A stretch of 64,000 nt of DNA, taken from assembly GCA_041674705.1 (NCBI GenBank), contig JBAYVF010000005.1, forward strand, positions 36,645-100,644, written 5' to 3'. Positions 6,001-58,426 of the stretch are shown piece by piece. Both the position numbers and the translations under genes were made by a program. Under the pieces are notes generated by a model. It ran no database searches. It was given only the letters and a program-made list of their open reading frames with translations, and was not told where the DNA came from. This stretch comes from Candidatus Omnitrophota bacterium. Its GTDB lineage: Bacteria > Omnitrophota > Omnitrophia > Omnitrophales > Aquincolibacteriaceae. How positions within the stretch are numbered: position 1 is the stretch's first letter; each line of letters opens with the position of its first letter.

Positions 6001-9000
6001 GCCGACACTGATAAGCAAAGATACAAAAAAAGCCAAGGATGGGCGTAATTACAGGCCTCTGGATGCGGCGATCGGAACGGTTATCCACAACATGAACGAA
6101 TTTTTCCTGAGACGCTTAGCGGTTCCCACGGGATGGCGTTCTATTGAAGACAAAAAAATCGCTGAGGTCATGAAAAAATACAGGTATGACCGGGTTCTTT
6201 ACTTTTTTAACGTACCCCGGAGATTTTTTACGCCTCAAAAGAACCCGTTGGATGCCTATCTGCAGGCCTACGGCAATTATTTCAGTTTGGACCAAAAGGT
6301 CTGGATTTTGAGGGAAACATCTGAAGGGCTTGTTCCTCCCGAGTTTTCTGTTACCGCGCGGCAGAAGGCGAAGCCTGATGATGAGCGTGGTTTTTCATTC
6401 GATTCTGGGAAAGGTTATTGGAGCGAACTTCAGAACGTGATCGATTCGTTCGGAAAAAATTCGGATTGGTCATTTTTGAAAAAACTCGATATCGACGGGG
6501 ATGTTTTGATTCGGGATGCCGTTTTGGCTGGAGATATTCATATTCAATCGGCCTTTGACGGCGTCTTCGCTCTTGACCAAGCTCCCGAAATGCAGCCGTT
6601 GCGAGGTGCCGATGGCCGTATTCGATTGAAAAACATCAAGGTGAGCATCTCGAAGCAGGGAGGGGTCTCTGTCACTCCGCGTTCGGAAATGCGGACGGGG
6701 AATGAGCTTGAGAGAGCCATTGCCCTCAGCCAGTTAGCGCTTTCGGAGCTTAAGCGGGATCTCAAAGAGGCCAAGAAGGCGGGGACTCTGGCCTTAATCC
6801 CGGGTCTGGAGCAAACGATCCGGCAAAAGGTGAATGACATTGTTCGGTATCAATGGACATTGTCGGAAAACACAGTTGTTCAAGAGATCGTTCCGGAAAT
6901 GATGAAGAAAATTTCTGAAAGAGAAATGGCTGTTCAAAAGAAGGATCTGAATAAGGCCGCACGCCTTGAGGTGGAACGGGCCTACTATGCGATAGCTCCC
7001 GTGGCTATTTCCATGGGGGTTGATCCGATCGGCATGTTGCGATTCTTATATGGGATGGTACCTCTTAGCGAAGATCCGAATAAGAAGTTTATGGATATTT
7101 ACGCGGCGTTTTTAACCGGGGACCAGGACAAGATCAAAGCTTCGAACCTTCAGATCATTGGCCGGCCCATCAAGGATCTGGAAACGGCCCGTGAAATCTT
7201 TGCGGAAAAATTCGCTCCCTGGATCGCTGTTTTGCTCGAATTGCCCAAAGAAAAGAGTGCCGGGGTCAAGGTTTTCGCCCTCAAAAATTTTCTAGGGAAC
7301 ATGACAGGTTTTTATTTCGGGAATCGTGAAAAGGCCCTTCTCCCGGAGGCGGGGCGTCTCTTGACTGCGTGGGACAACTGGGTGAATCCCTCCAGAGTTC
7401 TCCCTGTGGCTCCTAGCATGCTTCAAGTGGGCGGGCTTAAGGTCGTAGTGCCGAACGTCTCGAAAACTATTCCGCCGCAGCAGCGCCAATCGTCGGCGCG
7501 TGCCGAGGCGAGAGATACTGAAGTCGATTATTCTGCCATCGAAGAATCCGTACAGCAGTTGAGGTTCGAAGGTGCCGAAGCCCGTCGAAGGACCCTCCTT
7601 GAAAAGCTTGTGGCTTTGTCCCTTGGCGCGCTTTACAAACCAACCCAGGTAGAATTGACGCCGGGAGCATTGAGAGAACTTGGAAAGATCTTCGGGAAAC
7701 TGCCGTCTGAGTTAACGCAAGAATGGTGTTTTGGCTTGATGCTGATGGTGGTGAGCCAGGGCATTCCTGCGAAAGGGGAAATATACGAACGTCCGGAAGT
7801 GCTTATCACGTTCGTTTCCGAAAAGTATCGGCTTGGTGCCGGTAAGGAGATCGCAACGGATGAGGCTTTGGCGAAGTTTATCCAAGCCGAGCAGGAAAGG
7901 ATCTCCAAAGAAGCAGCGAAGATCCGGGTACTTGAAAAACGTAAAAATTCCAGCCGCTCCGAAATCCGGGGTGGCGACAACGGTTATACAATTGAGTCGT
8001 TGACGCCCAGAGAACAGCTGGTTCGGGGGCAGATCAAGCGGGAAATGATAGAAAGAACGGCGTCGCCCAAGATCTTATGGTCCCAGGGAGAATTGAAGAA
8101 TTTAAAGACGCTGGAAATAGAGGCCTTGAAGATCTGGACGCCCCGGTTGTATGTTTCTGGGAAGCCGGATGTCCAAAGAGCCAAAGCCACTCGCGATCGG
8201 TTGCGTGAAAATTATTACAGCTATGACGTGCAGGTTGCGGCGCATATGCTGAAAAAAATGGCCCTTGAACTAAGCTATGAGGAAATCAATGAGCAGCTCA
8301 CCCGGGAGCAGCTAAAAGAAGTGACGGAGGTTTTGAGCGCGGCCGTCCACAATGGTGAGTACCTCCAGGATCACCGGGTGAGTTCTTGGGGGCATTATGA
8401 TCAGCTGAAGCTTATCGCAAGTTCGCCCGCCTACCTTAAAGATATTTTGAGGAAGTTAAAGGCTCTTTATGAACATGAAGCTAGGCTCGCGGCCTCAAAA
8501 ACAAGCCGAGCCGAGGTTCGTGCCGTTCCTGCGATCTCGCAGGCCACTGTCATGAATTCGATGAACAGGGAAGAACGGCCATTCGATCTCCGCAGCGTTA
8601 CGCAGTTATCCTTTTTGAATTACCTCAAACTGCGTTTCGGGATTCTGCCGCAAGCCATGGCGGAAGCGCTTTCAAAGAGCTTCACGAATGTTCGCGGAAT
8701 AGTGAATCGGTTGATGACCCATGCGGGCATTGCGGCGCCGGCTGTGGCCTCCAAGACAGCTGAGAGTGCCAATGCGGTGAAGATGAAATCAGCTCGTGCG
8801 GTCTTTGGTGAAACGACGCTCAACAAGACCTCCGATGCGTTCATTATTGGCGCGACGTTTGCATTCGATCGTTGGGCGATCGCGGCGATGCGCGCGGTTT
8901 TTGGCGATGCTTCGATGGTCGTACTGGTCCGAAATGACGAGGATCGGGCGAAGCTTGCAAAGATGAATGCCGAACTCGCAAAGGCGGGGCGGCCTGAGAT

Positions 9001-9262
9001 CCTGCAAGCAGAGGATTCCAATGGGGTGAAGGCGTTCATGGCTCAGGAGAAAGTTCGTCAGCGCGGTATCGGCCGCAACCTGAGATTTAAGGCGATCGTG
9101 GACGTAAACGATCCGATGGCGATCGCGCTTAAGGAAATGATCCCGGATTTTGTCTGGGTCAACGATGGGAACTTCGGAAGTTTCATGTTCCAGGCCGGCG
9201 AAGCGATCCGGATGTTGGTTGCCGACTTCCAGAAGAATTTCGCCCTCGCCAAATCCGCGTAA
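11..9262 (+). CDS. Giant (3,083 aa) membrane-anchored multidomain protein: 4 predicted TM helices, GNAT-like fold, two UDPGP-family (eukaryote-type UDP-sugar pyrophosphorylase) domains, long helical C-terminal modules
   Basis: Single uninterrupted ORF. LELAGGSGSRLG..IMTS..GHGD..NVDN..EKVGV (aa ~915-1140) and SLDGGLGEKL..PGGHGQ..NGDNVNA..KKGGKDG..FNTNT (aa ~1680-1960) match UDPGP-family signatures. VGPDYEGRYIGSALL (aa ~670) resembles GNAT motif A. Hydrophobic pairs lie at aa ~211-277 and ~434-480. An RBS-like AGGGG (3-7) precedes ATG 14, but the frame is also open to position 2, so the N-terminus could lie upstream. Confidence 0.85.
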   Translation: MMDRMKDSVLEHFKGRSDFAYAPDWEADYEAGMKPYTLINIEGVSHLLTPMGEIFWGQSNTSPKVAFGAQSTSAENTRKLAGIVAALMIHAREEVAPQAPKLHPLETSELFKAWLPETHKLSYADFSKTTEGASGKTYEAWQSNGLEANVLAAYPTAEAALSEFTARAEIRDLDNEASEFFIDDKKPAHEDKQPATIYYHTPKEMTSSPSYGVITFLSGIAVLFVVVGLIAGLVAVAKGMNNPIYGAGDPMARMILWTAGGVLIVAAVIAAWMWHGFSKQKNYEMMGPTTLKGPITPENQPYSFTEQPSKAPEKVGSPERSEARSSLRTERSREAAPVRAEMRNFESMIEKHLSSDFGMKVFWDVVWAEMNRNEGMNPLDPSRTFQQWVLEADHADELVDVVEATGEISLRLKKALDSQKNLAAQEESRRFKNKILFGGAAAAVILANVVFLKIISPGLALHFLSPAVSLLLLALLMPENIYIRKSLSLEDAVRRPKLIEHYSPLILTAFEQARKEMFRIVREESDERERHSPVLEAWVRQTRPDEVKRAEMRDIEADLAQIPEPLRTNVREFLTLGEADAEGWQGSKSLLMRCAKGSLFRFDLGVRTIANGSERWVKIDVTDITPGTDQKEVGFYKFRMGLPVGGKIVAIGEYDMDAERQQEHEPTMRVGPDYEGRYIGSALLVLGLYLAKKYGNESFIARDIVAKGFFDANHMGFSPNGNGWESIFDLVEMPLPKLPSLKPQDPIRVKLNREIAHWKNRYASIAGSKNREYGFNISVRRFEKIDLTMEKVYGDPLLNEEERVIVAKAIAFGKGGIFHFWKELDKAAKRRLLDQLNAIDRIDIRLNIQTSRTGIESLQELFQKFIINGEAGADLKPAPEQIQAPGMFDLADENSPQAMEAIMLGDAARSRGEVAVLELAGGSGSRLGFDKPKIEYPASPIRHKSLGRLRAEKIAAYAQDALRLGAFLTKVPHSGQEAEEMAAGLKKASAKTGIPIPWIIMTSDVTHAQTLAYFNDRMRDGKYFGLIPKDWVRFKEQRVLPVFTDRGEWVLEAKDKISVSGFGHGDAREWIMMDPETQEWLRGVFGIKYVAVANVDNAMLPALGSRAIGYHILATRDNALGAEPLSKVVVDKRGPGEKVGVSVLLDGNDAVIEYNQFTRDILTFKYAYVFENRRIVFYKADDGTYQIYGLSEFNDFVKGTQSLAAMDFKQFETWVSEHLANLNEVPQDAKIYWSGEPYLKERLKGLKLWLNLGSINGLIWTLDSFMNKEHPLAPLPVVVAKGKNVDGFHPENFKPYTKDQEVIKVNKFETMAFHGFLRGPSHGAHILARREDAFSPIKEPEKEGPDNPVEAARIYSERHIRWLRGRVDAEVMPGAVVELADPFAGVDGRELFQRIGKGLFLSEKSQFSVSGPNTRIGQNFRVENSSAFILRHDIESRSQSEVQIGPDVTVKAHVYFRLKGNATVLVDPGVVFNYPVAFVLDDGEYLHIRQELLDEVYRLLSSGNEADISQVFEMYRKSKEASKGKTEESRTDGQKKYDSFLVYKLVESISKRFPDFSPAKKNAQRVLAQIVDWQLKLKPEQKEALARAQDVYLEKYKEPMSPAYAAYVTAMILRADREKLKIAVRGSDGSVIGEQSNFVLASQLTDEEKERLLGAFDYKTIVADSENEPEAAKAFVTIHSLDGGLGEKLVRYVYKQILVDENLVPREEVEFDENGKVKNGAKGTDTGFVIHHEGQRVFVSVAEVKILQMIERVRTGKIGGVGFTPLVNKDSKPSYEKLLDRICLEDRFKSTGDKRTYRQLLQELGAEVNPLYLQQDLPGIDVETNRPATNPDGLWQPGGHGQLGFSFLYKPEDWKPRHDGKFDVLAFVNGDNVNASQLDPSMIGMMARKKMPVVKLTTMAMPIDKKGGKDGLLLENGSLRIPQQMEIADAQAWGKTEENLFIKAGQEEGSKIFGATSVGNQPFNTNTIYVVKDFLFPLLAEVKKLLGDERYYAEVIAPTLISKDTKKAKDGRNYRPLDAAIGTVIHNMNEFFLRRLAVPTGWRSIEDKKIAEVMKKYRYDRVLYFFNVPRRFFTPQKNPLDAYLQAYGNYFSLDQKVWILRETSEGLVPPEFSVTARQKAKPDDERGFSFDSGKGYWSELQNVIDSFGKNSDWSFLKKLDIDGDVLIRDAVLAGDIHIQSAFDGVFALDQAPEMQPLRGADGRIRLKNIKVSISKQGGVSVTPRSEMRTGNELERAIALSQLALSELKRDLKEAKKAGTLALIPGLEQTIRQKVNDIVRYQWTLSENTVVQEIVPEMMKKISEREMAVQKKDLNKAARLEVERAYYAIAPVAISMGVDPIGMLRFLYGMVPLSEDPNKKFMDIYAAFLTGDQDKIKASNLQIIGRPIKDLETAREIFAEKFAPWIAVLLELPKEKSAGVKVFALKNFLGNMTGFYFGNREKALLPEAGRLLTAWDNWVNPSRVLPVAPSMLQVGGLKVVVPNVSKTIPPQQRQSSARAEARDTEVDYSAIEESVQQLRFEGAEARRRTLLEKLVALSLGALYKPTQVELTPGALRELGKIFGKLPSELTQEWCFGLMLMVVSQGIPAKGEIYERPEVLITFVSEKYRLGAGKEIATDEALAKFIQAEQERISKEAAKIRVLEKRKNSSRSEIRGGDNGYTIESLTPREQLVRGQIKREMIERTASPKILWSQGELKNLKTLEIEALKIWTPRLYVSGKPDVQRAKATRDRLRENYYSYDVQVAAHMLKKMALELSYEEINEQLTREQLKEVTEVLSAAVHNGEYLQDHRVSSWGHYDQLKLIASSPAYLKDILRKLKALYEHEARLAASKTSRAEVRAVPAISQATVMNSMNREERPFDLRSVTQLSFLNYLKLRFGILPQAMAEALSKSFTNVRGIVNRLMTHAGIAAPAVASKTAESANAVKMKSARAVFGETTLNKTSDAFIIGATFAFDRWAIAAMRAVFGDASMVVLVRNDEDRAKLAKMNAELAKAGRPEILQAEDSNGVKAFMAQEKVRQRGIGRNLRFKAIVDVNDPMAIALKEMIPDFVWVNDGNFGSFMFQAGEAIRMLVADFQKNFALAKSA

Positions 9263-9267
9263 CGCAG

Positions 9268-9366
9268 GACATAGTACTTTGTACTTGGTACATAGTACTT
9301 GGCATATAGCAAAAAACTTCCCCCATTTTGTTTTGCTCCAAGTACCATGTGCTATGTACTATGTGC
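9268..9366. repeat. Heptamer-array hairpin, ACATAGT/ACTTGGT word family, copy 1
   Basis: Left arm 9268-9310 reads acatagt actttgt acttggt acatagt acttggc atatagc. Right arm 9335-9366 is the imperfect complement. Loop ~24 nt. Starts 6 nt after the giant-ORF stop. Confidence 0.75.
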
Positions 9367-9437
9367 TTTCATTTCAGTCCCTTCATTGCTAAAATACTCT
9401 CCAAGTTTGTAACCCGTTGAATCAAGGGGGGATAGCA

Positions 9438-10652
9438 GTGTTTCCATCCGTCAAAGAGCAGCTAGAGGTTTTTAAAGAAAATCTCGTCGAGCTTATCTCC
9501 GAGCGTGAGCTGACGATGAAGCTTGAAGCTTCCCTCAAGAATAAATGTCCTCTTCGTATCAAATACGGCGCCGATCCTTCGGCCCCCGATCTTCATTTGG
9601 GGCATACGGTCCCTCTTCGTAAACTTCGACAGCTTCAGGATTTAGGTCATCTCGTCGTTTTCATTATCGGCGATTTCACCGCGCGTATTGGGGATCCTTC
9701 CGGGAAATCGGAAACGCGGCCCATGCTTTCCGAAGAGCAGGTTCAGACGAACGCCAAAACCTATCAGGAGCAGGTGTTCCGCATCCTCGATAAAAAGAAG
9801 ACGGAGGTGCGCTACAACTCCGAATGGCTGGGTACCATGAGTTCCGCGGATTTTCTCAAACTCACGGCGCAGTACACGGTCGCCAGGATCCTTGAACGCG
9901 ATGATTTTTCAAAGCGCTATAAATCAGGGGAGCCCATTGCGGTCGTGGAGCTTCTTTATCCCCTCATGCAAGGCCATGATTCCGTGGAGATCGAATCCGA
10001 TATCGAGATCGGCGGAACGGATCAAAAATTCAATCTTCTGGTCGGACGGGAACTTCAAAAGACCGATGGCCAGGAGCCTCAGGTTGTGATGACGCTTCCT
10101 CTGATCGAAGGGTTGGATGGCGTTCAGAAGATGTCAAAAAGCCTCGGAAATCATATTGCGCTGAAAGACAGTCCCCGGGAAATGTTCGGCAAGGTGATGT
10201 CAATCCCGGATGCTCTGATGGAACGGTATTACCGGTACGCGGCCGCGCTTTCTCCCAAAGAAGTCGAAAAGATCCTCGCAAGTCTAAAAAACGGAGAACT
10301 CCATCCTCGCGACGCCAAGGCGCAACTCGCGGAGCGGATCGTGTCTCTTTTTCATTCGGAAGCGGAAGGAAAAAGCGCGCGCGAAGAATTCGATGAGATC
10401 TTCAAGAATAAAGGCATGCCGGATGAGATCCCCACCGTCAAGATCGGTCAAAAGACGATCGATATCGTGAGCCTCCTGGTCGAGGCGGGGCTTGTGACGA
10501 GCAAATCCGAAGCTCGTCGTCTTATGGAACAGGGCGGGGTGAAGATCGGACACGAAAAGATCACGGACCCGAAGGCGGTCATGACGATCGGAGCGCCGTT
10601 TGTTCTCCAGTGCGGTAAGCGGAAATTCGTAAAGATAGTAAGTAGTATGTAG
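9438..10652 (+). CDS. tyrS: Tyrosyl-tRNA synthetase
   Basis: HIGH-type motif (DLHLGH), KMSKS (KMSKSLGN) and a C-terminal S4-like domain. The ORF track starts at TTG 9417; GTG 9438 is preferred because AAGGGGGG sits at 9424-9431. Confidence 0.93.
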
Positions 10653-10722
10653 TAGGTAGTATGTGGGGAAGGGAACGGCGGAACAGATTTTTGGCTTTTA
10701 CCTATCACCTACTACCTACCCC
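10637..10722. repeat. Heptamer-array inverted repeat, AGTAAGT/AGTATGT/AGTAGGT word family
   Basis: Left array 10637-10668 overlaps the last tyrS codons. Right array 10696-10722 (acctatc acctact acctacc) is its imperfect complement. Only a 9-bp core (gtagtaggt) pairs perfectly. Confidence 0.6.
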
Positions 10723-12504: not shown

Positions 12505-12511
12505 ACAATAA

Positions 12512-12933
12512 GTTCGGAGTCTGGAGCTGGGAGTTCGGAGATTGAAACATGGAAGATAAATTTTCATTCGAGAATCTGTTGGTCTATAGGAAAGCGTTGG
12601 ATTATGTGGATTGCGTCTATGAATGGACCCAGGTATTCCCAAAAGAAGAAAAGTTTGGACTGACAAGCCAATTTCAGAGGGCAGCGCAGTCCATAGCGTT
12701 AAATATCGGGGAGGGAAGCGGCGGCACCAAGGCCGAATTCCAGCATTTCGTAAAGATAGCCAGACGATCTGTAAGGGAATGTATTGTTTGTACAACGCTT
12801 GCAAGAAGAAGGAATTATCTATCTGAAAAGGATGAGGCGAAATCGCGAGAAAGAGCTTCGGAATTATCAAAAATGCTGAGTGGGCTGTTTAAGGCTATTT
12901 GATGCTCCGAACTCCAAACTCATGACTCAAAAC
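12512..12933 (+). repeat. GTTCGGA-word hairpin cassette enclosing the four-helix-bundle ORF
   Basis: The 29-nt arms 12512-12540 (gttcgga gtctgga gctggga gttcgga g) and 12905-12933 are complementary at 23/29 positions (hand count). They abut the ORF at 12549-12902. Confidence 0.8.
12549..12902 (+). CDS. Four-helix-bundle protein (23S rRNA intervening-sequence protein / Avd-like family)
   Basis: 117 aa. LVYRKALDY..LTSQFQRAAQSIALNIGEG..F..IARRSVRE pattern typical of the PF05635/TIGR02436 family. GGAG RBS lies in the flanking repeat arm. Confidence 0.8.
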   Translation: MEDKFSFENLLVYRKALDYVDCVYEWTQVFPKEEKFGLTSQFQRAAQSIALNIGEGSGGTKAEFQHFVKIARRSVRECIVCTTLARRRNYLSEKDEAKSRERASELSKMLSGLFKAI

Positions 12934-12938
12934 TAAAA

Positions 12939-17602: not shown

Positions 17603-18457
17603 ATGTCTAACGGGATGAAACGTACCCAGAAACCTTCGAACGAACTTCTTGAGAAGATCGATGCCTGCGTCGCGGCGATCCGTAAAGAAACGGATTTTAT
17701 TCCCGAGATCGCGCTGGTCCTTGGCACGGGGCTCGGGAATCTCGCGGGGCGCGTGAAGGCGGAAAAGGTTCTGACGTATGACAAGCTGCCGCATTTTTCG
17801 AAGTCGACCGTGGAATCCCATAAAGGGCAGCTCGTGCTCGGGGAACTTTCCGGAAAAAAGATCGCGGTGATGGAAGGACGATTCCATTTTTATGAAGGGT
17901 ACTCGCTTGAGGAGGTGACGTTCGGGGTGCGCGTGCTCCGCGAGCTGGGGGCAAAGATCCTGATCGTTTCAAACGCGGCCGGCGGATTGAATTTGAGCTA
18001 CAAAAAAGGAGAGATCGTGATCATCACCGACCAGATAAATTTTATGGGGGTGAATCCGCTGATCGGCCCTAATCTTAATAAGCTGGGGCCCCGCTTTCCG
18101 GATATGTATGAGCCTTATTCCAAGCGTTTGAACGACCTGACACTTGCCGCGGCGAAAGAAGTCAAAGTCCCGGTGAATCAGGGGGTTTATGTCGGAGTGA
18201 CGGGGCCGTGCCTTGAAACCCGCGCGGAGTACCGGATGATGCGTAATTTCGGCGCAGATCTTGTGGGGATGTCCACGGTGCCGGAGGTGATCGTGGGGGT
18301 GCACATGGGGATGGAGATCCTGGGCTTGAGCATTGTGACAGACACTTGTGATCCGGACCATCTCGAGCCATGCAATATCCAGGAGATCATCAAGACGGCG
18401 AACGAAGCCGGGCCGAAGTTAGACAAACTTATTACAGCCGCGATTTCCAAGTTCTAA
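17603..18457 (+). CDS. punA: Purine nucleoside phosphorylase (PunA/PNP-I type)
   Basis: STVESHKGQLVLG..GRFHFYEGY..SNAAGG..GMSTVPE closely parallel PunA-family sequences. Confidence 0.88.
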   Translation: MSNGMKRTQKPSNELLEKIDACVAAIRKETDFIPEIALVLGTGLGNLAGRVKAEKVLTYDKLPHFSKSTVESHKGQLVLGELSGKKIAVMEGRFHFYEGYSLEEVTFGVRVLRELGAKILIVSNAAGGLNLSYKKGEIVIITDQINFMGVNPLIGPNLNKLGPRFPDMYEPYSKRLNDLTLAAAKEVKVPVNQGVYVGVTGPCLETRAEYRMMRNFGADLVGMSTVPEVIVGVHMGMEILGLSIVTDTCDPDHLEPCNIQEIIKTANEAGPKLDKLITAAISKF

Positions 18458-18524
18458 GTGCCATGTACTATGTACCAAGTACGGAGGCATAACGAGTACT
18501 TAGCATATAGTACATAGTACTTAG
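18458..18524. repeat. Heptamer-array hairpin, ACATAGT/ACTTGGT word family, copy 2 (opposite orientation)
   Basis: Arms 18458-18482 and 18496-18524, ~17/20 complementary by hand. The 18-mer gtacttggtacatagtac at 9281-9298 recurs as its reverse complement at 18465-18482. Confidence 0.8.
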
Positions 18525-18535
18525 TGAAAGAAAAA

Positions 18536-21364
18536 ATGACCGAAGCGAAGAATTATAAAGATACACTCAATCTTCCGCAAACTTCCTTTCCCATGAAAGC
18601 GAATCTGGCCGAGCGTGAGCCGGAGATGCTTAAAAGTTGGGAAGCGGAAGGGGTGTATGCTGCGATCCGCGCGAAGTCTGCGGGGAAACCCAAGTATGTG
18701 CTTCACGACGGTCCTCCTTATGCGAATGGCCACATCCATATCGGTCACGCGCTCAATAAAGTCCTCAAAGATCTCATTGTGAAATATCAGACCATGCGCG
18801 GCCATGACGCGCTCTATGTGCCGGGCTGGGACTGCCACGGCCTGCCGATCGAACACGCCTGCCTTAAAGAAATGGGCAAGCGCAAGGAGGAAGTGGATCG
18901 GGTCGAGTTCCGCAAGCACGCGCGTCAATACGCGGAAAAATTTGTCGGGATCCAACGCGACGGGTTTAAAAGGCTCGGTATCTTCGGGGAATGGGACAAG
19001 CCTTATCTCACCATGAACTACGGGTATCAGGCGGCTATTGCAGATTCTTTCCTTCGGCTTTACGAGGATGGGTTCATCGAACAGCGCCTGAAACCTGTTC
19101 CGTGGTGCTATGACTGCGACACAGCGTTGGCTGAAGCGGAGCTTGAGTATGAAGACAAGATCTCCAAGTCCGTCTATGTGAAATTTCCCTTGGAGGATTC
19201 CAAGAATGTTTTGAAGCTTCCCGCCGGGACTTCAGCTTGTTTACTGGTATGGACCACGACGCCTTGGACGTTGCCGGCGAACGTTGGCGCGGCCGTGCAT
19301 CCGGAGCTCGAATACGGAATTTTCCAAAAAGGGAACGAGGTTTATGTTTTCGCCAAAGAACTTGAGGCGAAACTAAAAGACAAGATCGACCTCGGCGGTT
19401 TCAGCCGTATCAAGTCTCTGACGGGGCAAACGCTTCAAGGGATGGAATACCAACATCCGTTCCTTGATCGCAAAGGCAAAGTCATTACGGCGGATTATGT
19501 CTCCAGTGAAGATGGCACCGGGATCGTCCATATCGCACCGGGGCATGGGGAAGACGACTACAAACACGGACATCTGGAACACGGCCTGCCGATCCTTTCG
19601 CCCGTGGATTCACGGGGGAAATTCACCGAGGAATTTCCTTTTTGCAAAGGCGAGCATGTTTTTAAAGCCAATCCCAAGATCACAGCGCTTTTAAGCGAAA
19701 AAGGATTACTCCTTAAAGAAGAAGATTATCCGCACAGCTACCCGCATTGCTGGCGTTGCAAAAAACCGATCCTTTTTCGCGCGACCACGCAATGGTTCAT
19801 GAAGATCGATCACAAAGATCTCCGTAAGCGCATGCAGGGAGCCATCGAAAAAAACATCCAGTTCATTCCGGACTGGGGCAAGAATCGTATCGGAGCGATG
19901 GTGGAGTCGCGGCCGGAATGGTGTTTGTCCCGTCAGCGCCTCTGGGGCGTGCCGATCCCGGTGATCCGTTGTAAGCATTGCGCGGGGGTGCACTTCGTCA
20001 AGGAATCCAAGACGAAGATCCTGGAACTTTTTGAGAAGGAAGGCACGGATGCGTGGTTTTCGCATCCGGCGGAAGCGTTTCTCCCTGCGGGCCTCAAGTG
20101 TCCGAAATGCCACAAAAGCGAATTTGAAAAAGAAACCGATATCATTGATGTTTGGTTCGATTCGGGCGTGAGTCATCAGGCCGTGCTTCGCCGGCATCCG
20201 GGTCTTAAATATCCCGCGGACCTGTACCTTGAAGGCTCCGACCAGCATCGGGGTTGGTTTCAAAGCGCTCTTACCACTTCGATGGCGCTTGAAAATAAAA
20301 GCCCGTTCAAAAGTGTCCTGACGCACGGGTTCGTGATGGACGGGCAGGGGAAGAAGATGTCGAAATCCGCGGGGAATGTCGTTACCCCGCAGGATGTGAT
20401 GAAGGAGTTTGGCGCGGACGTCCTTCGCCTTTGGGTGACCTCCTGCGATTACCAGTTCGATGTCCGCCTTTCCAACGAGATTCTGAAACAACTTGTGGAT
20501 ACTTATCGCAAGATCCGTAATACGTTCCGTTATTTTCTCTCCAATCTTTTTGATTTTGATCCCGCGAAGCATTCCGTGCCGTATGAGAAATTGCATCCTC
20601 TGGATCGCTGGGCGATGGCCAAGGCGGATCTCCTGGTCGCGTCGGTGACGGGCCTCTACGAGCGTTTTGAATTCCATGAGATCTACCGCGAGGTCTACGA
20701 TTTTTGCGTGGTGGATTTGAGCGCCTATTATCTGGACGCGCTGAAGGACACGCTTTACACCGCGGCGCCGGATTCCTGGCTTCGCCGCTCCGCCCAAACA
20801 GCGTTTTTTTATATCCTGTCGCGTCTCGTGAAGATCGTGGCGCCTATTCTTCCCTTTACAGCCGACGAGGTGTGGAAATCGTATAAGCTCGAAGAAGGAG
20901 TCGCGACGGTGCATGCAAGCGCCTGGCCCGTGGCACCGGTCATAAAGACGGGGAATGAATTCCGGGATTGGGAGCATCTCCGGGAGGTCCGTAACGCGAT
21001 CACCCCTTTCCTTGAAAAAAAGCGTGAGGCCAAGGAGATCGGCGCGGGGCTCGAGGCGAAGGTGATCTTCACTGCAGAAGATCCGGAATCAGCCGAAATA
21101 CTACATAGATATGAAAAAGAACTCACTCGCGTTTTTGTCGTGTCCCAGGTCACCCTGGAGACAAAGGCCGTGGAGGGTATGGAGGCCGCAGAAGGTGTTT
21201 CCGCGGTGCTCCAGAAGAAATTCGGATTGAAGGTCCTTGTGACCAAAGCGGACGGTGCCAAATGCGTCCGTTGCTGGAATTACTCCTCCGCTGTCGGCCG
21301 GGATCCCGAGCATGGGTCTCTTTGCCCCAAATGTGTTGAAGCGATCCGGGGAGCAAAATCATAA
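18536..21364 (+). CDS. ileS: Isoleucyl-tRNA synthetase
   Basis: [11 protein letters not shown] (HIGH), KMSKSAGN (KMSKS), C-terminal CxxC..CxxC zinc ribbon. ATG 18536 preferred over GTG 18524. Confidence 0.95.
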
Positions 21365-45371: not shown

Positions 45372-45457
45372 GCGGCGTACGGAGTATCGCGTACGGCGTA
45401 AAAGCACAAAATGATTTTAAAGTTCAACGCGAGACGCCGTACTCCGTACGCCGTACG
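45372..45457. repeat. GTACGGCG-word hairpin, copy 3 (guaA-dnaE spacer)
   Basis: Arms 45372-45398 / 45435-45457 are ~19/23 complementary. 36-nt loop. The 22-mer cgccgtactccgtacgccgtac is identical at 43786-43807 and 45435-45456. Confidence 0.8.
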
Positions 45458-45460
45458 AAA

Positions 45461-48400
45461 ATGAGCCACAGCGACTTCGTCCATCTTCATTGTCATACCG
45501 AATACAGTCTTCTTGACGCGACCTGCAAGATCGATGAGCTCATGACGCGCGCCAAGGAGCTTCGTTTTCCGGCGCTTGCCATGACCGACAACGGCAATCT
45601 CTTCGGTGCTATCCAGTTCTACTCCAAGGCCATGAAAGAAGGGATCAAACCCATTATCGGTTTGAGCACGTACGTGGCCCCCGGATCCCGGCTTGAGAAA
45701 CAAGCGCATGGCATCAAGGAAGCTTCCTTCCATCTCACCCTTTTGGCTACGAACGAGAAGGGGTACCGGAATCTTATGAAGCTCGCAAGCATTGGATACA
45801 CCGAAGGTTTTTATTACCGGCCGCGCGTGGATAAGGAAATCCTTAAGGAATATTCGGAAGGTCTGATCGCGCTCTCGGGCGGGCTCAAGGGCGAGGTTCC
45901 GTATTATCTTTATCATGATCAGATGCATGATGCGCGAAAGGTCACGGAGGAATACGCGGGGATCTTTGGCCAGGACCGGTTCTTTCTTGAGATCATGGAT
46001 CATGGGCTGGAACCGCAGAAAAAGGTCACCCTGGGCTCCCAGAAGCTTGCCAAGGATCTCAAGGTCGGCATTGTGGCGACCAATGACGTGCATTACATTC
46101 ATCAGAACCAGGCGATGGCGCATGACGCGTTGATCTGCATCGGGACCGGCGCGAAGCTCGATGAGCCGAATCGCATGCGCTATCAGGGCGATCAATATTA
46201 TCTTCGGTCCGCGGAAGAGATGAAAAGCCTCTTCAAGGATATTCCACAGGCGATCCGGTCCACGATCGAGATCGCCGAGCGATGCAATCTGGAACTCGAT
46301 TTTCACAAGATCTTTTTGCCCCAATTCGCGCCGCCCGACGGAAAGACGCAAGTTCAGTACATGGAAGAGCTTTGCTTCAGGTTCCTGCGTGAGCGTTTTG
46401 CCGGAGAGATCCCTCCCGAATATGAAACCCGTCTTCGTACCGAGATCACGCTGATCAATAAAATGGGTTATATCAGTTATTTCCTGATCGTTTGGGATTT
46501 CATCCGGTTTGCCCGGGAAAAGGGGATCCCTGTGGGGCCGGGGCGTGGATCGGCGGCGGGGAGCCTTGTCGCTTACGCGCTTTACATTACGGACATCGAT
46601 CCCATCAAGTACCATCTTTATTTCGAGCGATTCCTCAACCCCGAACGCGTGAGCATGCCGGATATTGATATCGACTTCTGTTATGAGCGCCGCGACGAGG
46701 TGATCGATTATGTGAAACGCAAGTATGGCACGGCGAACGTGGCACAGATCATCACGTTCGGGACCATGGCGGCCAAGGCCGCGGTGCGTGACGTGGGACG
46801 GGTGATGGGGATTCCCTACGGTGAGGTGGATCGCATCGCGAAGCTGATCCCTCTGGAGCTCAAGATCACGCTCAAGCAAGCCCTGGAGCGTGAGCCTCAG
46901 CTTAAGGAAATGGTGGCCACCGACGTGCGGATGGCGCAACTGATTGAGACTGCCCAGGCCCTTGAGGGGCTCTCGCGCCACGCATCGATCCACGCGGCCG
47001 GTGTGGTGATTTCGGATGTACCGCTCACGGATCATGTGCCGCTTTACAAGACCGAGGACCAGATCTGCACACAATACACCATGAAAGATCTCGAGAAGAT
47101 CGGGCTCCTTAAAATGGATTTTCTGGGTCTCAAGACGCTTACCGTGATCGATGAAGCGGTCAAGATCGTTCAGAAGATGCACGGCGTGAAAGTCGATATC
47201 GCGAGGCTTCCGGAAGACGATCCCCAGACTTATGAGATGCTCGCCAAGGGCGATGCCTTGGGCGTGTTCCAGCTTGAAAGTTCGGGGATGCGCGATCTTC
47301 TCAAGAAAATGAAGCCGAATAAATTCGAGCATCTTGTGGCGCTCCTCGCCCTTTATCGCCCGGGACCTCTCGGCAGCGGCATGGTGGATGATTTCATCAA
47401 GCGTATGAGGGACCCCAAGCTCATCAAGTACGATCATCCGGCGCTAGAACCCAGTCTGAAAGAAACTTACGGCGTTATTCTTTACCAGGAACAAGTCATG
47501 CGTATTGTGAGCGATCTCGCAGGCTTCACGCTCGCTCAGGCCGATTCACTCCGTCGCGCCATCGGGAAAAAGATCCCCGAGGTCATGGCGAAAGAGAAAA
47601 AGGCGTTCATGGATGGCGCGATGAAACGTGGCGCCAAGGAGAAAGTCGCAGAGAAGATCTGGGAGCTCATTGATTTCTTCTCGGGTTATGGCTTTAACAA
47701 ATCCCATTCCACGGCGTACGCAGCGGTGTCTTATCAGACCGCCTATCTCAAGGCGCATTATCCGGTAGAATTCATGACGGCTCTTCTGACCTCGGAAATG
47801 AACAACACCGATAAAGTGGTGCAATATATCGAGGCCTCCAAAAAGATGGGGATCGATGTCCTGCCGCCCGCGGTCAATGAAAGTTTTTCGGATTTCACTT
47901 GTGTGGGAAATCACATCCGGTTCGGGCTCGCGGCCATCAAAAACGTCGGTTCGACCGCCATTGAGTCGATTATCGCGACCCGGCTAAAGGATGGCCCGTT
48001 TAAATCGCTTTTTGATTTTGTTCAGCGTGTGGAGCTTCGGACCTGCAATCACAAGGTGATGGAAAGCCTTATTAAATGCGGCGCTTTTGATGAATGGAAG
48101 CTTCACCGTTCTCAGCTCATGGCGATGCTCGATGGCGTGTTGGATATGGGAGCGAATGTTCAGAAGGACCGAAGCCGCGGGCAGCTTTCTTTTTTTGAGA
48201 ATAGCGGAGGGGAAAGTTTTCATGACCAGCAAGCTTCTGTGCCGGATATTCCGGAATGGCCGGAGAACCAAAGATTGGCTTATGAGCGCGAGCTGATCGG
48301 TTTTTATGTTTCCTCGCATCCGCTTTCCAAATACGCCAAGATCCTGAAAAGTTATGCGACGGCGACCACGGCCAACCTTTCGGAATTCAATCACCAGGCC

Positions 48401-54830: not shown

Positions 54831-56528
54831 ATGAAAAAAGCACACAAGAAGCCCACGCCCGTATCATCCAAAAAGCCCTCTTCGGCTCACGCCAAGGGGA
54901 AGTCCCTGCCTGTGCCGCCCGCCAAGGCAAAATCGGGTAAAAAGGGGGGCGTCTCGATGAAACTCCAGGGAGAGATGATTCATAAGCTCCTGACCCTCGG
55001 CAAGAAGCAGGGTTTTGTCACGATTGAGCAGATGAAAAAGCAGCTACCCGCGGACATGAACAATCCCGAAAAAGTCGAAGAGATCATTGTGGCTTTGAAT
55101 GAAAAAGGGATCGAAGTGACAAGCGGCGCCCCGGGAGATCCGACCAAGTCCGGTTCCGAAGTGATCCAGGACGTCGAAGTCAAAAAAGGGAAAGACTCCG
55201 AGCTTGAGGAAGATGCGGCCGTTGAAGAATATGAACGCGGGCGCATCGATGATCCGGTCCGCACTTATCTCCGCCAGATGGGACAGATTTCGCTTCTGAC
55301 CCGTGAACAAGAGATCGAGATCTCCAAGAAGATCGAAGCTTGTGAGCATGAGCTGAAGAAAGTGGTCTATCAGACCAAGGCGGCGCGGTTTGAAGTCCTT
55401 GAGCTCGCGAAAAAAATGCTCGAAGGCCAGGTCCAGATCGAGGCGATCATTGAAAGCGAAGAGCAGGCCCAGATCCAGACGCTCAAGAAAAAACTCAAGT
55501 TGTTGATCCGCAAGTTCCGCGCCTCCCGGAAAAAATCAAATGTCGTTGAACTTCTTTTGCAGTTTAATCTCAGTATCGCGATCGTCGAGCAGATCGTTGT
55601 CAGCTTAAGAGCTAAGCTGAAAGAGCTGAAACGGAACCGCGATGATATCAAGAAACTTCGTCGGAGCGGCGTGCGCGGCAAGATCGGCCAGATCGAGGAG
55701 CGGAACCGTCAGATCCTTCACGAGCTCGGCGAGCCGGAAGAAAAACTTCATGAGCATTTTAAAGCGATTATTCGCAAGGAATGGGAACTCACCAAGGCAA
55801 AGAAGGCGCTCGTGGCCGCCAACCTTCGCTTGGTAGTGAGTATTGCCAAAAAATATACGAACCGCGGGCTTTCTTTTCTGGACCTGATCCAGGAAGGGAA
55901 CATCGGCCTGATGAAAGCGGTGGATAAATTCGAATACAAGCGCGGCTATAAGTTTTCAACTTACGCGACCTGGTGGATCCGCCAGGCGATCACGCGCTCG
56001 ATCGCAGATCAGGCCCGTACGATCCGTATCCCGGTCCATATGATCGAAACAATCAACAAGTTTTTCCGAGCGTCGCGTCATCTGGTTCAGGAGACCGGGC
56101 GTGAACCGACCCCGGAAGAAGTTGCGCAGGTCATGAAGATGCCCGTTGAAAAGGTGAAGGGGATCTTGAAGATCGCCCAGGAGCCGATCAGCCTTCAGAC
56201 ACCGATCGGGGATGAGGGAGACACGAGTTTTGGGGATTTTATCGAAGATAAGTCTGCAGTCTCTCCGGCCAATGCGACGGCTTACAGTATGCTTAAGGAA
56301 CAAATGGATGACGTGCTTCTGACGCTTACCGAGCGTGAAGAAAAAGTCCTGCGTTTGCGATTCGGGATCGGCGACGGTTATCCCCGGACCCTGGAAGAGG
56401 TCGGGCATATTTTCAGCGTAACCCGTGAGCGGGTTCGTCAGATCGAGGCCAAGGCGCTTCGTAAGCTGCGTCACCCTACGCGGTCGAGAAAACTTAAGAA
56501 TTTTCTGGATATTAAGCTAAGCGAGTAA
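54831..56528 (+). CDS. rpoD: RNA polymerase sigma factor RpoD (sigma-70)
   Basis: [11 protein letters not shown] (1.2), [12 protein letters not shown] (2.x) and region 4 ..[17 protein letters not shown]. Lys-rich N-terminal tail. ATG 54831 preferred over 54783. Confidence 0.95.
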
Positions 56529-56609
56529 TAGAATCTTTTCGAGTTTGTACGGTCCGCGGGGACCCTTACCAAGCGCGGCGGCGGCGGTTAAATTATTTTT
56601 GAGGCCAAA

Positions 56610-57014
56610 ATGTCAGAGAATAAAAAATGCCTGCTTGTGATCGATGATGAGGATGATGTCGGCCAAATCATCAAGGAGAAGTTCGAGGCTCTTGGTTATA
56701 AGGTTTTGACCGCGCTTGACGGAGCCGAAGGTTTTCAGAAGACTGAAGAAGGTAAGCCCGACGTAGTGCTTCTGGATATCCGCATCCCGAAAGGCGAAGA
56801 CGGATTGACCTATCTTCGCAAACTTCGCTCGTACCGTCACGATGATCTTCAGGAACAGACTCGTATCCGGAAAACTCCCGTCATCATGCTGACCGGCGCC
56901 GGGGCGACGATGCAGTCGCTTTTTGAGCTTGAGGGGATCAGTGGTTTTATTGAAAAACCTTTTGATCTCGCTAATCTTCAGGGCAAAGTCGAGAACATCC
57001 TCCGGACACGTTAG
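56610..57014 (+). CDS. Response regulator, receiver domain only
   Basis: LVIDDEDD..LLDIRIP..MLTG..EKP receiver pattern. Confidence 0.85.
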   Translation: MSENKKCLLVIDDEDDVGQIIKEKFEALGYKVLTALDGAEGFQKTEEGKPDVVLLDIRIPKGEDGLTYLRKLRSYRHDDLQEQTRIRKTPVIMLTGAGATMQSLFELEGISGFIEKPFDLANLQGKVENILRTR

Positions 57015-57084
57015 TTTTCTTTCCCGCCTTATTGTTGATTGCAATTCCTCTTTATCTTCGATATCCTACTTTCGCTTTGCTCTA

Positions 57085-57154
57085 GTTCGGAGTATGGAGT
57101 TTGGAGTTCGGAGTAACATCCTTAGATTTTTTCTCCGAACTCAGGACTCATAAC
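57085..57154. repeat. GTTCGGA-word hairpin without ORF (19-nt loop)
   Basis: Left arm 57085-57113 is 26/29 identical to 12512-12540. Right arm 57133-57154 begins with the same ctccgaactc as 12905-12914. Confidence 0.8.
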
Positions 57155-57252
57155 TTCTAGCTTAATACAAGGGCCTATCCAATTCTCTGTAAGAGATTAA
57201 AAGGTTAATTGGATTGGTCCTGTCGACCATTAAAGAAATAAATAAAAGACAA

Positions 57253-57326
57253 GGGCCTATAGCTCAATCGGTTAGAGCAGAGGACTCATAATCCTTTGGT
57301 TGGAGGTTCGATTCCTCCTGGGCCCA
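57253..57326 (+). tRNA. tRNA with CAU anticodon (elongator Met or lysidine-modified Ile2; not initiator-like)
   Basis: Hand-folded cloverleaf: acceptor GGGCCTA/TGGGCCC, D arm GCTC..GAGC, anticodon arm GAGGA-CTCATAA-TCCTT, T arm GGAGG-TTCGATT-CCTCC. No encoded CCA. No 3 G-C pairs in the anticodon stem. Confidence 0.9.
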
Positions 57327-57340
57327 ATCTTTTTTAGGAA

Positions 57341-57460
57341 GGCCGAGTCCTGGTTCTCCGCCAAAAATCGTGGCGAGACCCGTCCACAAAGCTTCGAAAC
57401 ATCCGTACGATTTTTGAGACGAACCTCGCCAAGCTTTGTGGCGGGGAGTCCAGGTGGGCC
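57341..57460 (+). ncRNA. Candidate structured RNA / long imperfect hairpin downstream of tRNA(CAU)
   Basis: ccacaaagctt (57384-57394) pairs with aagctttgtgg (57431-57441). ggcgag/ctcgcc, cctgg/ccagg and ggcc/ggcc blocks also pair. No convincing coding potential. Confidence 0.3.
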
Positions 57461-57470
57461 AAGTTCTTTC

Positions 57471-57500
57471 TTGACAGTTCTCGCAGGTGAAAAGTAGACT
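57471..57500 (+). promoter_or_regulatory. Candidate promoter upstream of the TPR lipoprotein gene (TTGACA-N18-TAGACT)
   Basis: TTGACA 57471-57476, TAGACT 57495-57500. Confidence 0.4.
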
Positions 57501-57542
57501 TGGGCGTACATTGCTATTCGCCAGATAATGAAGGGGCCTTTT

Positions 57543-57896
57543 ATGAAAAAGATGAAACTTTGGGCGGTGGGGGCACTCTTAAGCGTACTGTTTGCTTCGT
57601 GCGCGTTCCATTCTTCGAAGCATTCTTTCGGACCTTATTCCGCTGCCGAAACTTTTTACAGCAAGGGGAATTATCCCAAAGCGATCGAAAAGTATCAAGA
57701 ATATCTGGCCGAAAATCCCAAGGGAAATCTGGCTGCGACGGCCGAGTACTATGTTGCGAAAAGCTACGCCGCATCCGGAAATCCGGACAGAGCTCGCGAG
57801 AGTTTTGAACGGGTCCTGAAGACATTCCCCGGGACGAGTTGGGCTGCGTTTTCAAAGGAACAACTGGAAGCTTTGGATGGTGTCACGAAAGTTTAA
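57543..57896 (+). CDS. TPR-like lipoprotein (YbgF/BamD-like repeat)
   Basis: Lipobox LFASC after the signal peptide. TPR-like FYSKGNYPKAIEKYQEYL.. repeat. Confidence 0.7.
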   Translation: MKKMKLWAVGALLSVLFASCAFHSSKHSFGPYSAAETFYSKGNYPKAIEKYQEYLAENPKGNLAATAEYYVAKSYAASGNPDRARESFERVLKTFPGTSWAAFSKEQLEALDGVTKV

Positions 57897-57937: not shown

Positions 57938-58426
57938 GAGAAGGTCTTCTCGGATGACCGCGCACAGATGACGAGAGACGGGAAACGTCCTGTCCAACCG
58001 CTGTGGGAGGAAAGTCCGAGCTTCACAGGGCATCGTAGTGGGTAACGCCCACCCCCCCGTCGCTTTGCTTCGCAAAGCGAAGCAGCGGGGGCGGATTAGA
58101 GCCACAGAGACGAGTTCTGCTTCGCCTTGTCCGTAAGGGCAAGGCTACGCAGGAATGAATCCCTCTAGCAATAGGGGGCTAGTTCCTGCGAAACGCCGCC
58201 GTTAAGGACGGCGTGGAGCAGAAGTGAAACGCGGCAATCTCTACGTGAAGAAAGGCTAAACAGGGTGAGGAGCGAAAGCGGGAACTGCCCGTTCCTAGAT
58301 CGCCGCAAGGCGGGAACCTTACCGGGTCAGCCGACCGAGGCCGTCAGTAATGACGGCCCTAGATAGATGGTCATCCATTACCCGCAAGGGTGAGGACAGA
58401 ACTCGGCTTACAGGGAAGACCTTCTC
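57938..58426 (+). ncRNA. rnpB: RNase P RNA, bacterial type A
   Basis: GGAGGAAAGTCCGAGC (P4 5' strand), ACAGAACTCGGCTTACAG (P4 3' strand), GGTAACGCCCACC and CCTAGATAGATGGTCATCC blocks. P1 pairing is GAGAAGGTCTTCTC / GGAAGACCTTCTC. A T-run follows. Confidence 0.9.

Follow-up and report, generated by a model that had tools for sequence, protein, structure and literature searches.

The closest described relatives of the element reported here are the intervening sequences (IVSs) in the 23S rRNA of Salmonella, Leptospira, Coxiella and others, in which a terminal inverted repeat forms a long stem and an open reading frame (ORF) of family PF05635 (S23p/IVP) is an optional cargo, giving ORF-bearing forms and many ORF-less ones. 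The IVS of Coxiella has a 28-bp terminal inverted-repeat stem that is cut by RNase III and carries two to three tandem GACAGAT units, in variable copy number, upstream of its S23p ORF (PMC4990558). In bacteria of the candidate phyla radiation, several rRNA insertion sites likewise have IVP ORFs. We studied a hairpin without an ORF at 57084-57162 of a 64,000-nucleotide (nt) stretch of Candidatus Omnitrophota bacterium DNA (contig JBAYVF010000005.1; the whole stretch is referred to as the window), together with its twin, a cassette at 12511-12934 that holds an IVP gene in its loop. Our preferred reading, to which we assign a probability of about 0.6, is that the target hairpin belongs, as a member without an ORF, to an IVS-like family of heptamer-repeat palindromes, and that it was inserted as a unit into the leader of a tRNA-Met gene, where it is transcribed, folded and discarded with that leader. 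As in the 23S rRNA IVSs, the stems are terminal inverted repeats, the PF05635 ORF in the loop is present (twin) or absent (target), and the target would sit in an RNA that undergoes processing anyway. The elements differ in location: the IVSs sit in an rRNA helix (25 or 45), whereas the target is in a presumed tRNA leader, with no rRNA found in the window by Rfam, and the twin lies between two translationally coupled ABC-transporter genes. They also differ in that both arms of the window elements are wholly complementary heptamer arrays.

Tandem heptamer repeats in intergenic DNA make up the cyanobacterial short tandemly repeated repetitive (STRR) sequences. The target arms likewise consist of head-to-tail 7-nt units in non-coding DNA, four units per arm, and, unlike the described STRRs, the arrays stand in complementary pairs. 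TAACTGA heptamer repeats, which are intergenic in Beggiatoaceae, Cyanobacteria and Bacteroidetes, share with the window arrays the 7-nt period, a position that is often just upstream of start codons, lineage-specific units and a variable copy number; they differ in being direct arrays, with one inverted set among 170 in the Beggiatoa genome and no mention of a link to IVP (PMC4679880), whereas the window arrays, being paired and complementary, fold into hairpins that may or may not enclose an IVP gene. In the literature searched, the Coxiella IVS was the only link found between four-helix-bundle (IVP) genes and flanking heptamer arrays, and the publications found on heptamer direct repeats describe neither complementary pairs nor an IVP connection.

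Two further types of system are less close. Repetitive extragenic palindromes (REP and REPIN sequences) and miniature inverted-repeat transposable elements (MITEs) are also short imperfect intergenic palindromes with presence/absence differences between relatives, and a possible pairing of autonomous with non-autonomous forms would be another common feature. REP and REPIN sequences are 20-40 nt long, are present in high copy and are moved by a REP-associated tyrosine transposase (RAYT, a Y1 transposase). The window hairpins have the inverted repeats of such elements, but differ from them in their low copy number per sequence type (two in 64 kb), in their internally periodic arms, in the lack of a target-site duplication, in having as associated protein a four-helix bundle without known catalytic activity, and in the absence of a transposase or RAYT partner from the Pfam hits precomputed for the genes up to 10 kb on either side of the cassette, RAYT genes not having been searched genome-wide. 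The Avd accessory proteins of diversity-generating retroelements (DGRs) belong to the same superfamily as the cargo of the twin, which has a weak bAvd Pfam match, and PF05635 has been described as Avd-like (PMC10053308). The differences from a DGR are that the same 10-kb neighborhood has no reverse-transcriptase family in its Pfam hits, template and variable repeats not having been searched for, and that the target hairpin comes without any protein.

The target hairpin is placed between the gene for a CheY-like response regulator (56610-57014) and tRNA-Met. The features of the site are as follows.

57039 to 57067, plus strand: promoter-like block TTGCAA-N17-TATCCT, upstream of the hairpin, conserved across nine species
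57084 to 57113, plus strand: left (5') arm, AGTTCGGAGTATGGAGTTTGGAGTTCGGAG, made up of GTTCGGA GTATGGA GTTTGGA GTTCGGA and then G, paired in the minimum-energy fold
57114 to 57132, plus strand: loop of 19 nt, TAACATCCTTAGATTTTTT, without an ORF and without a detectable IVP remnant
57133 to 57162, plus strand: right (3') arm, made up of CTCCGAA CTCAGGA CTCATAA CTTCTAG and then C(T)
57253 to 57326, plus strand: tRNA-Met (CAT), called by ARAGORN and matched by Rfam RF00005 at 74.9 bits

The minimum-energy fold of the plus-strand RNA has an energy of -32.5 kcal/mol (z = -4.3), which was reached by none of 200 shuffles, and joins 57084-57113 to 57133-57162 in an imperfect stem of about 29 bp; the antisense strand folds at -25.3 kcal/mol. 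A first-pass annotation of this DNA, made by a model from the letters alone, had correctly given the loop as 19 nt (57114-57132, read as taacatccttagatttttt). It had ended the hairpin at 57154, and the fold extends the right arm and stem by 7-8 nt to 57161/57162 (57133-57161 being CTCCGAACTCAGGACTCATAACTTCTAGC). The same annotation had drawn attention to the likeness between this hairpin and the ORF-bearing cassette, and both details that it cited are present in the sequence: its count of 26 identities in 29 positions of the left arm holds over the span it used, and both right arms start with the same letters.

Over the full arm, the target differs from 12511-12540 at 3 of 30 positions (27/30 identical), and none of 100 dinucleotide shuffles contained two or more such matches. 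The word GAGTTCGGAG occurs five times in the window where 0.26 occurrences are expected; four of these copies form the inner ends of the target and twin hairpins, and the fifth, at 44137, is within a coding region. The right arms of both hairpins open with CTCCGAACTC and match at about 22 of 30 positions overall when aligned by eye. Each target arm comprises four tandem degenerate heptamers, GTNNGGA on the left and its complement on the right, with a conserved core in which GGAGT is paired with ACTCC, and the two variable positions of the heptamer are often unpaired, producing periodic internal loops. The left-arm identity between target and twin is composed of 22 positions fixed by the consensus and five of the eight variable positions. 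The 26/29 identity is therefore no proof of a recent copy, as it reflects mostly the shared heptamer consensus. A more specific shared character, going by the letters, is the penultimate right-arm heptamer CTCATAA/CTCATGA, opposite an internal loop of 2-3 nt, which is common to the target, its orthologue L022 (L numbers refer to contigs and loci of relatives) and each of the four window-clade cassettes. Of the roughly 145 heptamers in the 43 GTTCGGA-type right arms that were counted, these four cassettes included, only about six are of this kind. Judged from its sequence, the target hairpin is a gene-less relative of the hairpin cassettes that bear IVP genes, and is homologous to the arms of the 12511-12934 cassette.

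The right arm at 57144-57155 also has AGGACTCATAAC, an 11/12 match to the anticodon stem-loop of tRNA-Met (57281-57293). We considered mimicry of the tRNA, as the heptamer CTCATAA equals the anticodon-loop sequence, and rejected it: the chance of such a match is about 1 in 16 given the CTCNNAA frame and it is probably a coincidence.

We compared the orthologous leader site in about 20 Omnitrophota species representatives and four metagenome relatives. The block TTGCAA-N17-TATCCT was nearly invariant in nine species in which the surrounding non-coding DNA had diverged, and based on this conservation it is a putative tRNA promoter. Given its position between the promoter-like block and tRNA-Met, the target hairpin is therefore probably part of the pre-tRNA leader. 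Four species have an ORF-less heptamer hairpin at this site: that of the window, L021 (decayed arms, loop of about 18 nt), L022 (loop of 19 nt, identical to L013/L014 from independent assemblies) and L036 (loop of about 31-32 nt). In the last three the hairpin starts about 14 nt past the -10-like hexamer and ends 7-8 nt before the tRNA. Folding energies of the orthologous stems range from -29 to -35 kcal/mol. Across the four orthologues, pairing holds in 77% of stem cells, compared with at most 50% in slid registers; four stem pairs have changed on both sides, and the internal loop is conserved.

The hairpin is absent from the orthologous site in L011, L025, L028, L030, L031, L034, L037 and L057. 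L011 and L025 retain the promoter-like block and the tRNA without it, and the L011 leader reads like that of its sister L036 with the entire hairpin taken out. A neighbour-joining tree built from 2 kb of rpoD and the response-regulator gene showed a patchy distribution, with the window and L021 in one clade, L036 with and its sister L011 without the hairpin, and L022 more distant. Such a pattern calls either for several insertions at a single spot or for several clean losses. No ORF was found at the orthologous tRNA-Met site in any of the species representatives or metagenome relatives compared.

Several other observations were made at this site. The contig of the closest species representative (L020, 3403-3473) stops exactly where the leader hairpin would begin, which fits a break in the assembly at a repetitive or palindromic element. 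In the window genome only, the target is immediately followed by a second hairpin (57170-57221). The 5' arm of this second hairpin, GGGCCTATCCAATTCTCTGTAAGAG, is similar to the first ~25 nt of tRNA-Met, and MAFFT aligned this arm to the tRNA 5' end of the other species. The second hairpin may be the relic of a partial tRNA duplication. In L015, L016 and L026 (about 10740-10790 in L015 coordinates), tRNA-Met is truncated after the anticodon stem and unrelated DNA follows, with no tRNA called by ARAGORN; this may represent an integration event. Downstream, at 57942-58426, is a bacterial class A RNase P RNA (174.6 bits). At 485 nt, compared with a model of 367 positions, its helices are much expanded, and it showed no heptamer arrays.

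The ORF-bearing twin consists of three parts.

12511 to 12540, plus strand: left arm, GTTCGGA GTCTGGA GCTGGGA GTTCGGA, whose last GGAG is 9 nt before the ATG
12549 to 12902, plus strand: IVP gene, encoding a 117-aa four-helix bundle, in the loop of the cassette
12905 to 12934, plus strand: right arm, CTCCGAA CTCCAAA CTCATGA CTCAAAA CT

The duplex of its arms, at -40.6 kcal/mol, encloses the ORF. The 117-aa product matched PF05635 (23S_rRNA_IVP) with an E-value of 2e-30 and PDB entry 2gsc_A with an E-value of 3e-15. The ratio of non-synonymous to synonymous substitution rates (dN/dS) of the ORF was 0.05-0.07 at a dS of 0.8-1.0, indistinguishable from those of tyrS and the ABC-transporter genes. 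Such strong purifying selection indicates that the IVP ORF is an old, vertically inherited and functional gene. The cassette was syntenic in at least four related genomes (L003-L006, L007-L009, L010 and one further contig). The heptamer arms were kept in the cassettes of L003, L007 and L010, with differences in the number and sequence of the units and drift at the variable positions.

In the window, L003, L007 and L010, arms and ORF sit exactly between the stop of the ABC2-permease gene and the start of the ABC_transp_aux gene. The same junction in the four outgroups L178, L179, L180 and L181 was without a hairpin in every case. In L178, L179 and L181 the two genes overlap stop-to-start (TAATG, TGATG or ATGA), and in L180 the genes as called are 44 nt apart, although an in-frame ATGAGACAA start overlapping the stop can also be read. 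Thus, the twin cassette, arms included, is an insertion exactly between stop and start. All four outgroup junctions were empty and none had the hairpin alone. In two of the genomes concerned (L013/L178 and L036/L179), the short hairpin is present in the tRNA-Met leader and the cassette at the ABC-transporter junction is absent. There is thus no obvious descent of the short hairpin from the cassette at 12.5 kb.

Together, these comparisons bear on the interpretation offered by the first-pass annotation, which had called the target a possible empty or decayed site and proposed that the ORF is gained or lost from a hairpin scaffold, or that the hairpin is the mobile unit. This was supported in part. 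The same type of arm does occur with and without cargo, both in the target and twin and in the family-wide scan described below, and the two filled-versus-empty comparisons (the permease|aux junction, and the tRNA-Met leader of L011 versus L036) favor the hairpin as the unit. The part that did not stand was the notion of a host scaffold awaiting an ORF, as the true empty sites have no hairpin; the hairpin and its arms were therefore gained or lost, rather than pre-existing. Aligned with the clean empty sites of relatives, the target hairpin and the IVP cassette are both whole-unit insertions.

The annotation had also suggested a search for remnants of the ORF in short loops, which had a mixed outcome. 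In L106, an intact cassette is followed 400 nt downstream by a short hairpin, in whose 46-nt loop the start codon is fused to the last ~12 codons of IVP; the alignment of this loop with IVP scored 59, which none of 1000 shuffles reached, and nhmmer gave an E-value of 0.004. When a DNA profile of about 75 IVP genes was run with nhmmer against 32 short hairpins, L106 was the only one matched, the target loop not being among the hits. The 32-nt loop of L036 aligned end to end, weakly, with the last 33 nt of the ORF (p = 0.046-0.076). Deletion of the ORF is thus, at the unrelated locus L106, a demonstrated route to ORF-less hairpins, and it is a possible origin for the target hairpin. L164 (6374-6858) holds what looks like an intermediate stage of cassette decay: an IVP-like, minus-strand pseudogene with a frameshift, surrounded by a heptamer hairpin whose gap is about 400 nt.

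A metagenome scan with the IVP alignment returned 80 loci; with the window-clade cassettes, this gave 78 non-redundant IVP loci with enough flank. All of the data are metagenome assemblies, and the scan of the host genome covered 64 kb of the 151-kb contig k141_2076480 (ENA). Period-7 arrays flanked IVP on both sides in 65 of the 78 loci and on one side in 11 more (76/78), and the left array was complementary to the right one. The heptamer unit was lineage-specific: GTTCGGA in 40 loci, with GTTCATA, TAGTCTT, GGTAGAG, CGGCGTT and TAGCGNN among the others. IVP proteins were 0.60-0.65 identical within a unit type and 0.41-0.51 across types, a relation in which host phylogeny is a confounder, with L113 as the exception: there, two types on one contig have proteins of 36% identity. 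The second cassette of that contig (7927-8493), with TAGCGNN arms, lies between cheA-like and cheY-like genes, and the other is of the GTTCGGA type.

A scan of 1.16 Mb for complementary period-7 arrays found 59 pairs. Their gaps were bimodal, in line with the split into short and ORF-containing loops that the annotation had suggested testing: about 22 pairs had gaps of 0-150 nt and no IVP, and about 31 held an IVP, mostly with gaps of 350-520 nt. The detector was conservative and missed both GTTCGGA hairpins. In the window it found 15 period-7 arrays, compared with 0-3 for periods of 5, 6, 8, 9 and 10, and none in 10 shuffled windows. Short heptamer hairpins were also met incidentally in loci of Planctomycetota, Verrucomicrobiia and Desulfobacteraceae.

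The window contains two hairpins of the GTTCGGA type and six period-7 hairpins of all types, and target and twin are thus not its only hairpins of this kind. The four further hairpins, which have other heptamer units and were found by a scan for period-7 palindromes, lie in short spacers between co-directional genes and fold at -30 to -47 kcal/mol.

9262 to 9370, no strand assigned: TAGTACT/TTGTACT hairpin between the giant ORF and tyrS, -40 kcal/mol
10631 to 10722, no strand assigned: GTAGTAN hairpin at the junction of tyrS and an ABC ATPase gene, with an orthologue of unit GTAGTAN in L010
18454 to 18528, no strand assigned: GTACTNN hairpin between PNP_UDP_1 and ileS, its unit inverted relative to that at 9262
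45373 to 45461, no strand assigned: CGTACGG hairpin between guaA-like and dnaE-like genes, -46.6 kcal/mol

Turnover of such hairpins is rapid among relatives. That at 9262-9370 is reduced in L010 and absent in L003. In the PNP_UDP_1|ileS spacer, the unit is GTACTNN in the window (18440-18545), GGGACTN in L178 (15840-15955) and ACGGGAA in L179 (15807-15940), which points either to a hot spot that has received insertions more than once or to very rapid concerted turnover in situ. The giant ORF next to the first hairpin (window 11-9262, continuing upstream; L001 1-6714) is called as 10,569 aa on the full contig, and the genes of relatives at its position are 2,500-7,800 aa long with differing Pfam content.

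Based on these findings, we propose the following course of events for the target. Insertion would have placed the whole element at once in the tRNA-Met 5' leader, downstream of the conserved promoter. It would be co-transcribed and fold into the imperfect stem with its periodic internal loops, which is probably cut by RNase III, by analogy with the IVP-bearing 23S rRNA IVSs and that of Coxiella. The hairpin would then be discarded with the leader when RNase P cuts at the 5' end of the tRNA. As to its origin, the target may have lost the IVP ORF by internal deletion, as documented at the other locus, or may be a non-autonomous copy. The element family would presumably have a means of mobility; the ORF-less target itself encodes nothing and is most likely a tolerated passenger.

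Several results weigh against this proposal. For the deletion route, local alignment of the 19-nt target loop to cassette heads, tails and interiors gave no IVP remnant (p = 0.2-0.96). For insertion, no consistent target-site duplication was found at the two filled/empty junctions or in about ten metagenome cassettes, the flanks being A/T-rich but differing, and IVP was the sole associated protein, with no mobility enzyme among the Pfam hits of the 10-kb neighborhood. For transcription from the conserved block, a consensus promoter scan scored TTGCAA-N17-TATCCT at 8/12, under the cut-off, and made no call. For a selected RNA structure, covariation over the four orthologues was modest, in that 42 of 500 shuffles reached the observed score. 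We also used a strand test: in stems selected as one RNA strand, G.U should exceed A.C mismatches on that strand. On the sense strand, there were 27 G.U and 40 A.C mismatches in 46 cassettes, and 5 and 8 in the five window hairpins passing the stem filter. In addition, the 9262 and 18454 hairpins have a common unit in opposite orientations. It therefore seems that the complementarity is kept up in the DNA, either as an element's terminal inverted repeats or through correction of the palindrome, and that it is not under selection in one RNA strand; folding of the transcript and its RNase III cleavage would then follow as a consequence, without being the selected function. Lastly, the occurrence of different heptamers in the same intergenic region across species is explained equally well by generation in situ.

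An origin in place is the alternative that survived best, although we consider it unlikely. It holds that these are local heptamer microsatellites, like the cyanobacterial STRRs, which were made palindromic by template switching and are not inserted copies; the likeness of the GTTCGGA hairpins would then reflect a shared constraint, such as binding by the same IVP protein, in place of common descent. Each intergenic region having its own heptamer unit, with different units in the same region across species, is as expected under this explanation, as are the variation in array length between orthologues and between Coxiella strains, the strand-symmetric complementarity, and the consensus-driven nature of most of the 26/29 identity. 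However, both empty/filled comparisons differ by the entire palindrome at once, and the non-consensus CTCATAA with its internal loop is common to the short hairpin and the cassettes. In addition, the location of 76 of 78 IVP genes next to complementary arrays would be hard to obtain through independent expansion on both sides of a gene.

That the hairpin is a cis-regulatory RNA of the host, either a selected element of the tRNA-Met leader for processing, attenuation or stability, or a terminator of the response-regulator gene, is improbable. Its position between the conserved promoter-like block and the tRNA, its retention with a preserved stem in four species and the better folding of the sense strand would all fit such a role. 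L011 and L025, however, do without the hairpin despite having the same promoter and tRNA, and the same kind of hairpin is found in many unrelated intergenic regions and around IVP genes, without the G.U bias of a selected RNA. An intrinsic terminator has a GC-rich stem directly before a U-tract; here no U-tract is present, TAATACAAGG follows the stem, and no terminator was called at the hairpin in a scan of 56500-57700. Rfam likewise returned no hairpin family, with tRNA(-Met) and RNase P RNA as the only matches around the site (E-value threshold) and in the whole window (gathering threshold).

The idea of an empty attachment site, in which IVP ORFs enter the loop of a pre-existing host scaffold and the target is an unoccupied copy, has been largely refuted and is very improbable. 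Nested or tandem sets of arms at some cassettes (L116, L119) could mean insertion into existing hairpins. Nevertheless, the cassette-free permease|aux junctions have no hairpin, with the genes overlapping in three of four, at the tRNA site it is the hairpin that forms the indel, and no relative has an ORF in that hairpin. Chance resemblance of low-complexity, purine-rich sequence, which the repetitive arms and their consensus-inflated identity might suggest and which the annotation had named as a possible source of the arm identity, is refuted by the shuffled controls (none of 100 with two matches, no period-7 array in 10 shuffled windows), the orthologous hairpins in independent assemblies and the fold z of -4.3.

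Some IVP cassettes and short hairpins occurred in unexpected settings. Two diverged contigs (L102, 1875-2366; L134, about 4830-5330) have a complete IVP cassette at an identical position inside the HATPase_c-encoding part of a histidine-kinase gene. In L134 each arm is readable in the same frame as the kinase halves, and in L102 only the flanks were read; this suggests that the kinase gene is split or otherwise tolerated. In Planctomycetota (L082, 2955-3010, CAWATZ010000003.1), a short hairpin of GGAGACA GGAGTCA ... TGACTCC TGACTCC lies within a 524-aa ORF for a hybrid histidine kinase/response regulator, where it occupies the linker and keeps the frame. The right arm (ATGCTCCGAACTACGAACTCC...) is translated as a prepilin-like leader peptide (MLRATNSELKTVNNKGFTLIE) in L106 (511-560 and 1029-1100) and also in L109, L116, L126, L128, L133 and others. 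At several loci (e.g., L106, L111, L128 and L129), the stop of the upstream gene abuts the left terminus (TAA TAG TT...). A viral origin was considered and rejected, as a single IVP relative was present among 2.9 million viral contigs; it too had heptamer arms.

We raise tentatively, as a possibility that we rather doubt, a broader interpretation in which IVP-hairpin cassettes are an unrecognised, phylum-spanning class of insertion elements of which the classical rRNA IVSs are the most visible case. Under this interpretation, a pentameric Avd-like IVP protein would recognise its cognate heptamer arrays, and hairpins without an ORF would represent non-autonomous or deletion derivatives, either persisting or being mobilised in trans. 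The sites occupied would be those where an excisable or tolerated RNA is harmless, including rRNA helices, tRNA leaders, operon stop/start junctions, prepilin leader peptides and sensor-kinase linkers.

The function of IVP/S23p and the origin of the rRNA IVSs have been questions since the early 1990s, and the protein is still called "functionally uncharacterized" in the literature searched. The ORF-less copy alone is small and probably a neutral passenger. Seen with its relatives, it leads to a testable picture, in which the unit is a palindrome of complementary heptamer arrays, found far outside rRNA and with or without an IVP gene, that is gained or lost whole at defined junctions, and in which proteins of a shared heptamer type are more alike. 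The (GTTCGGA)4 array is a specific candidate ligand for IVP binding, and the natural filled and empty sites could be used for reconstructing insertion. If it is true that IVP is a sequence-specific repeat binder, this would have a bearing on how Avd works in diversity-generating retroelements.

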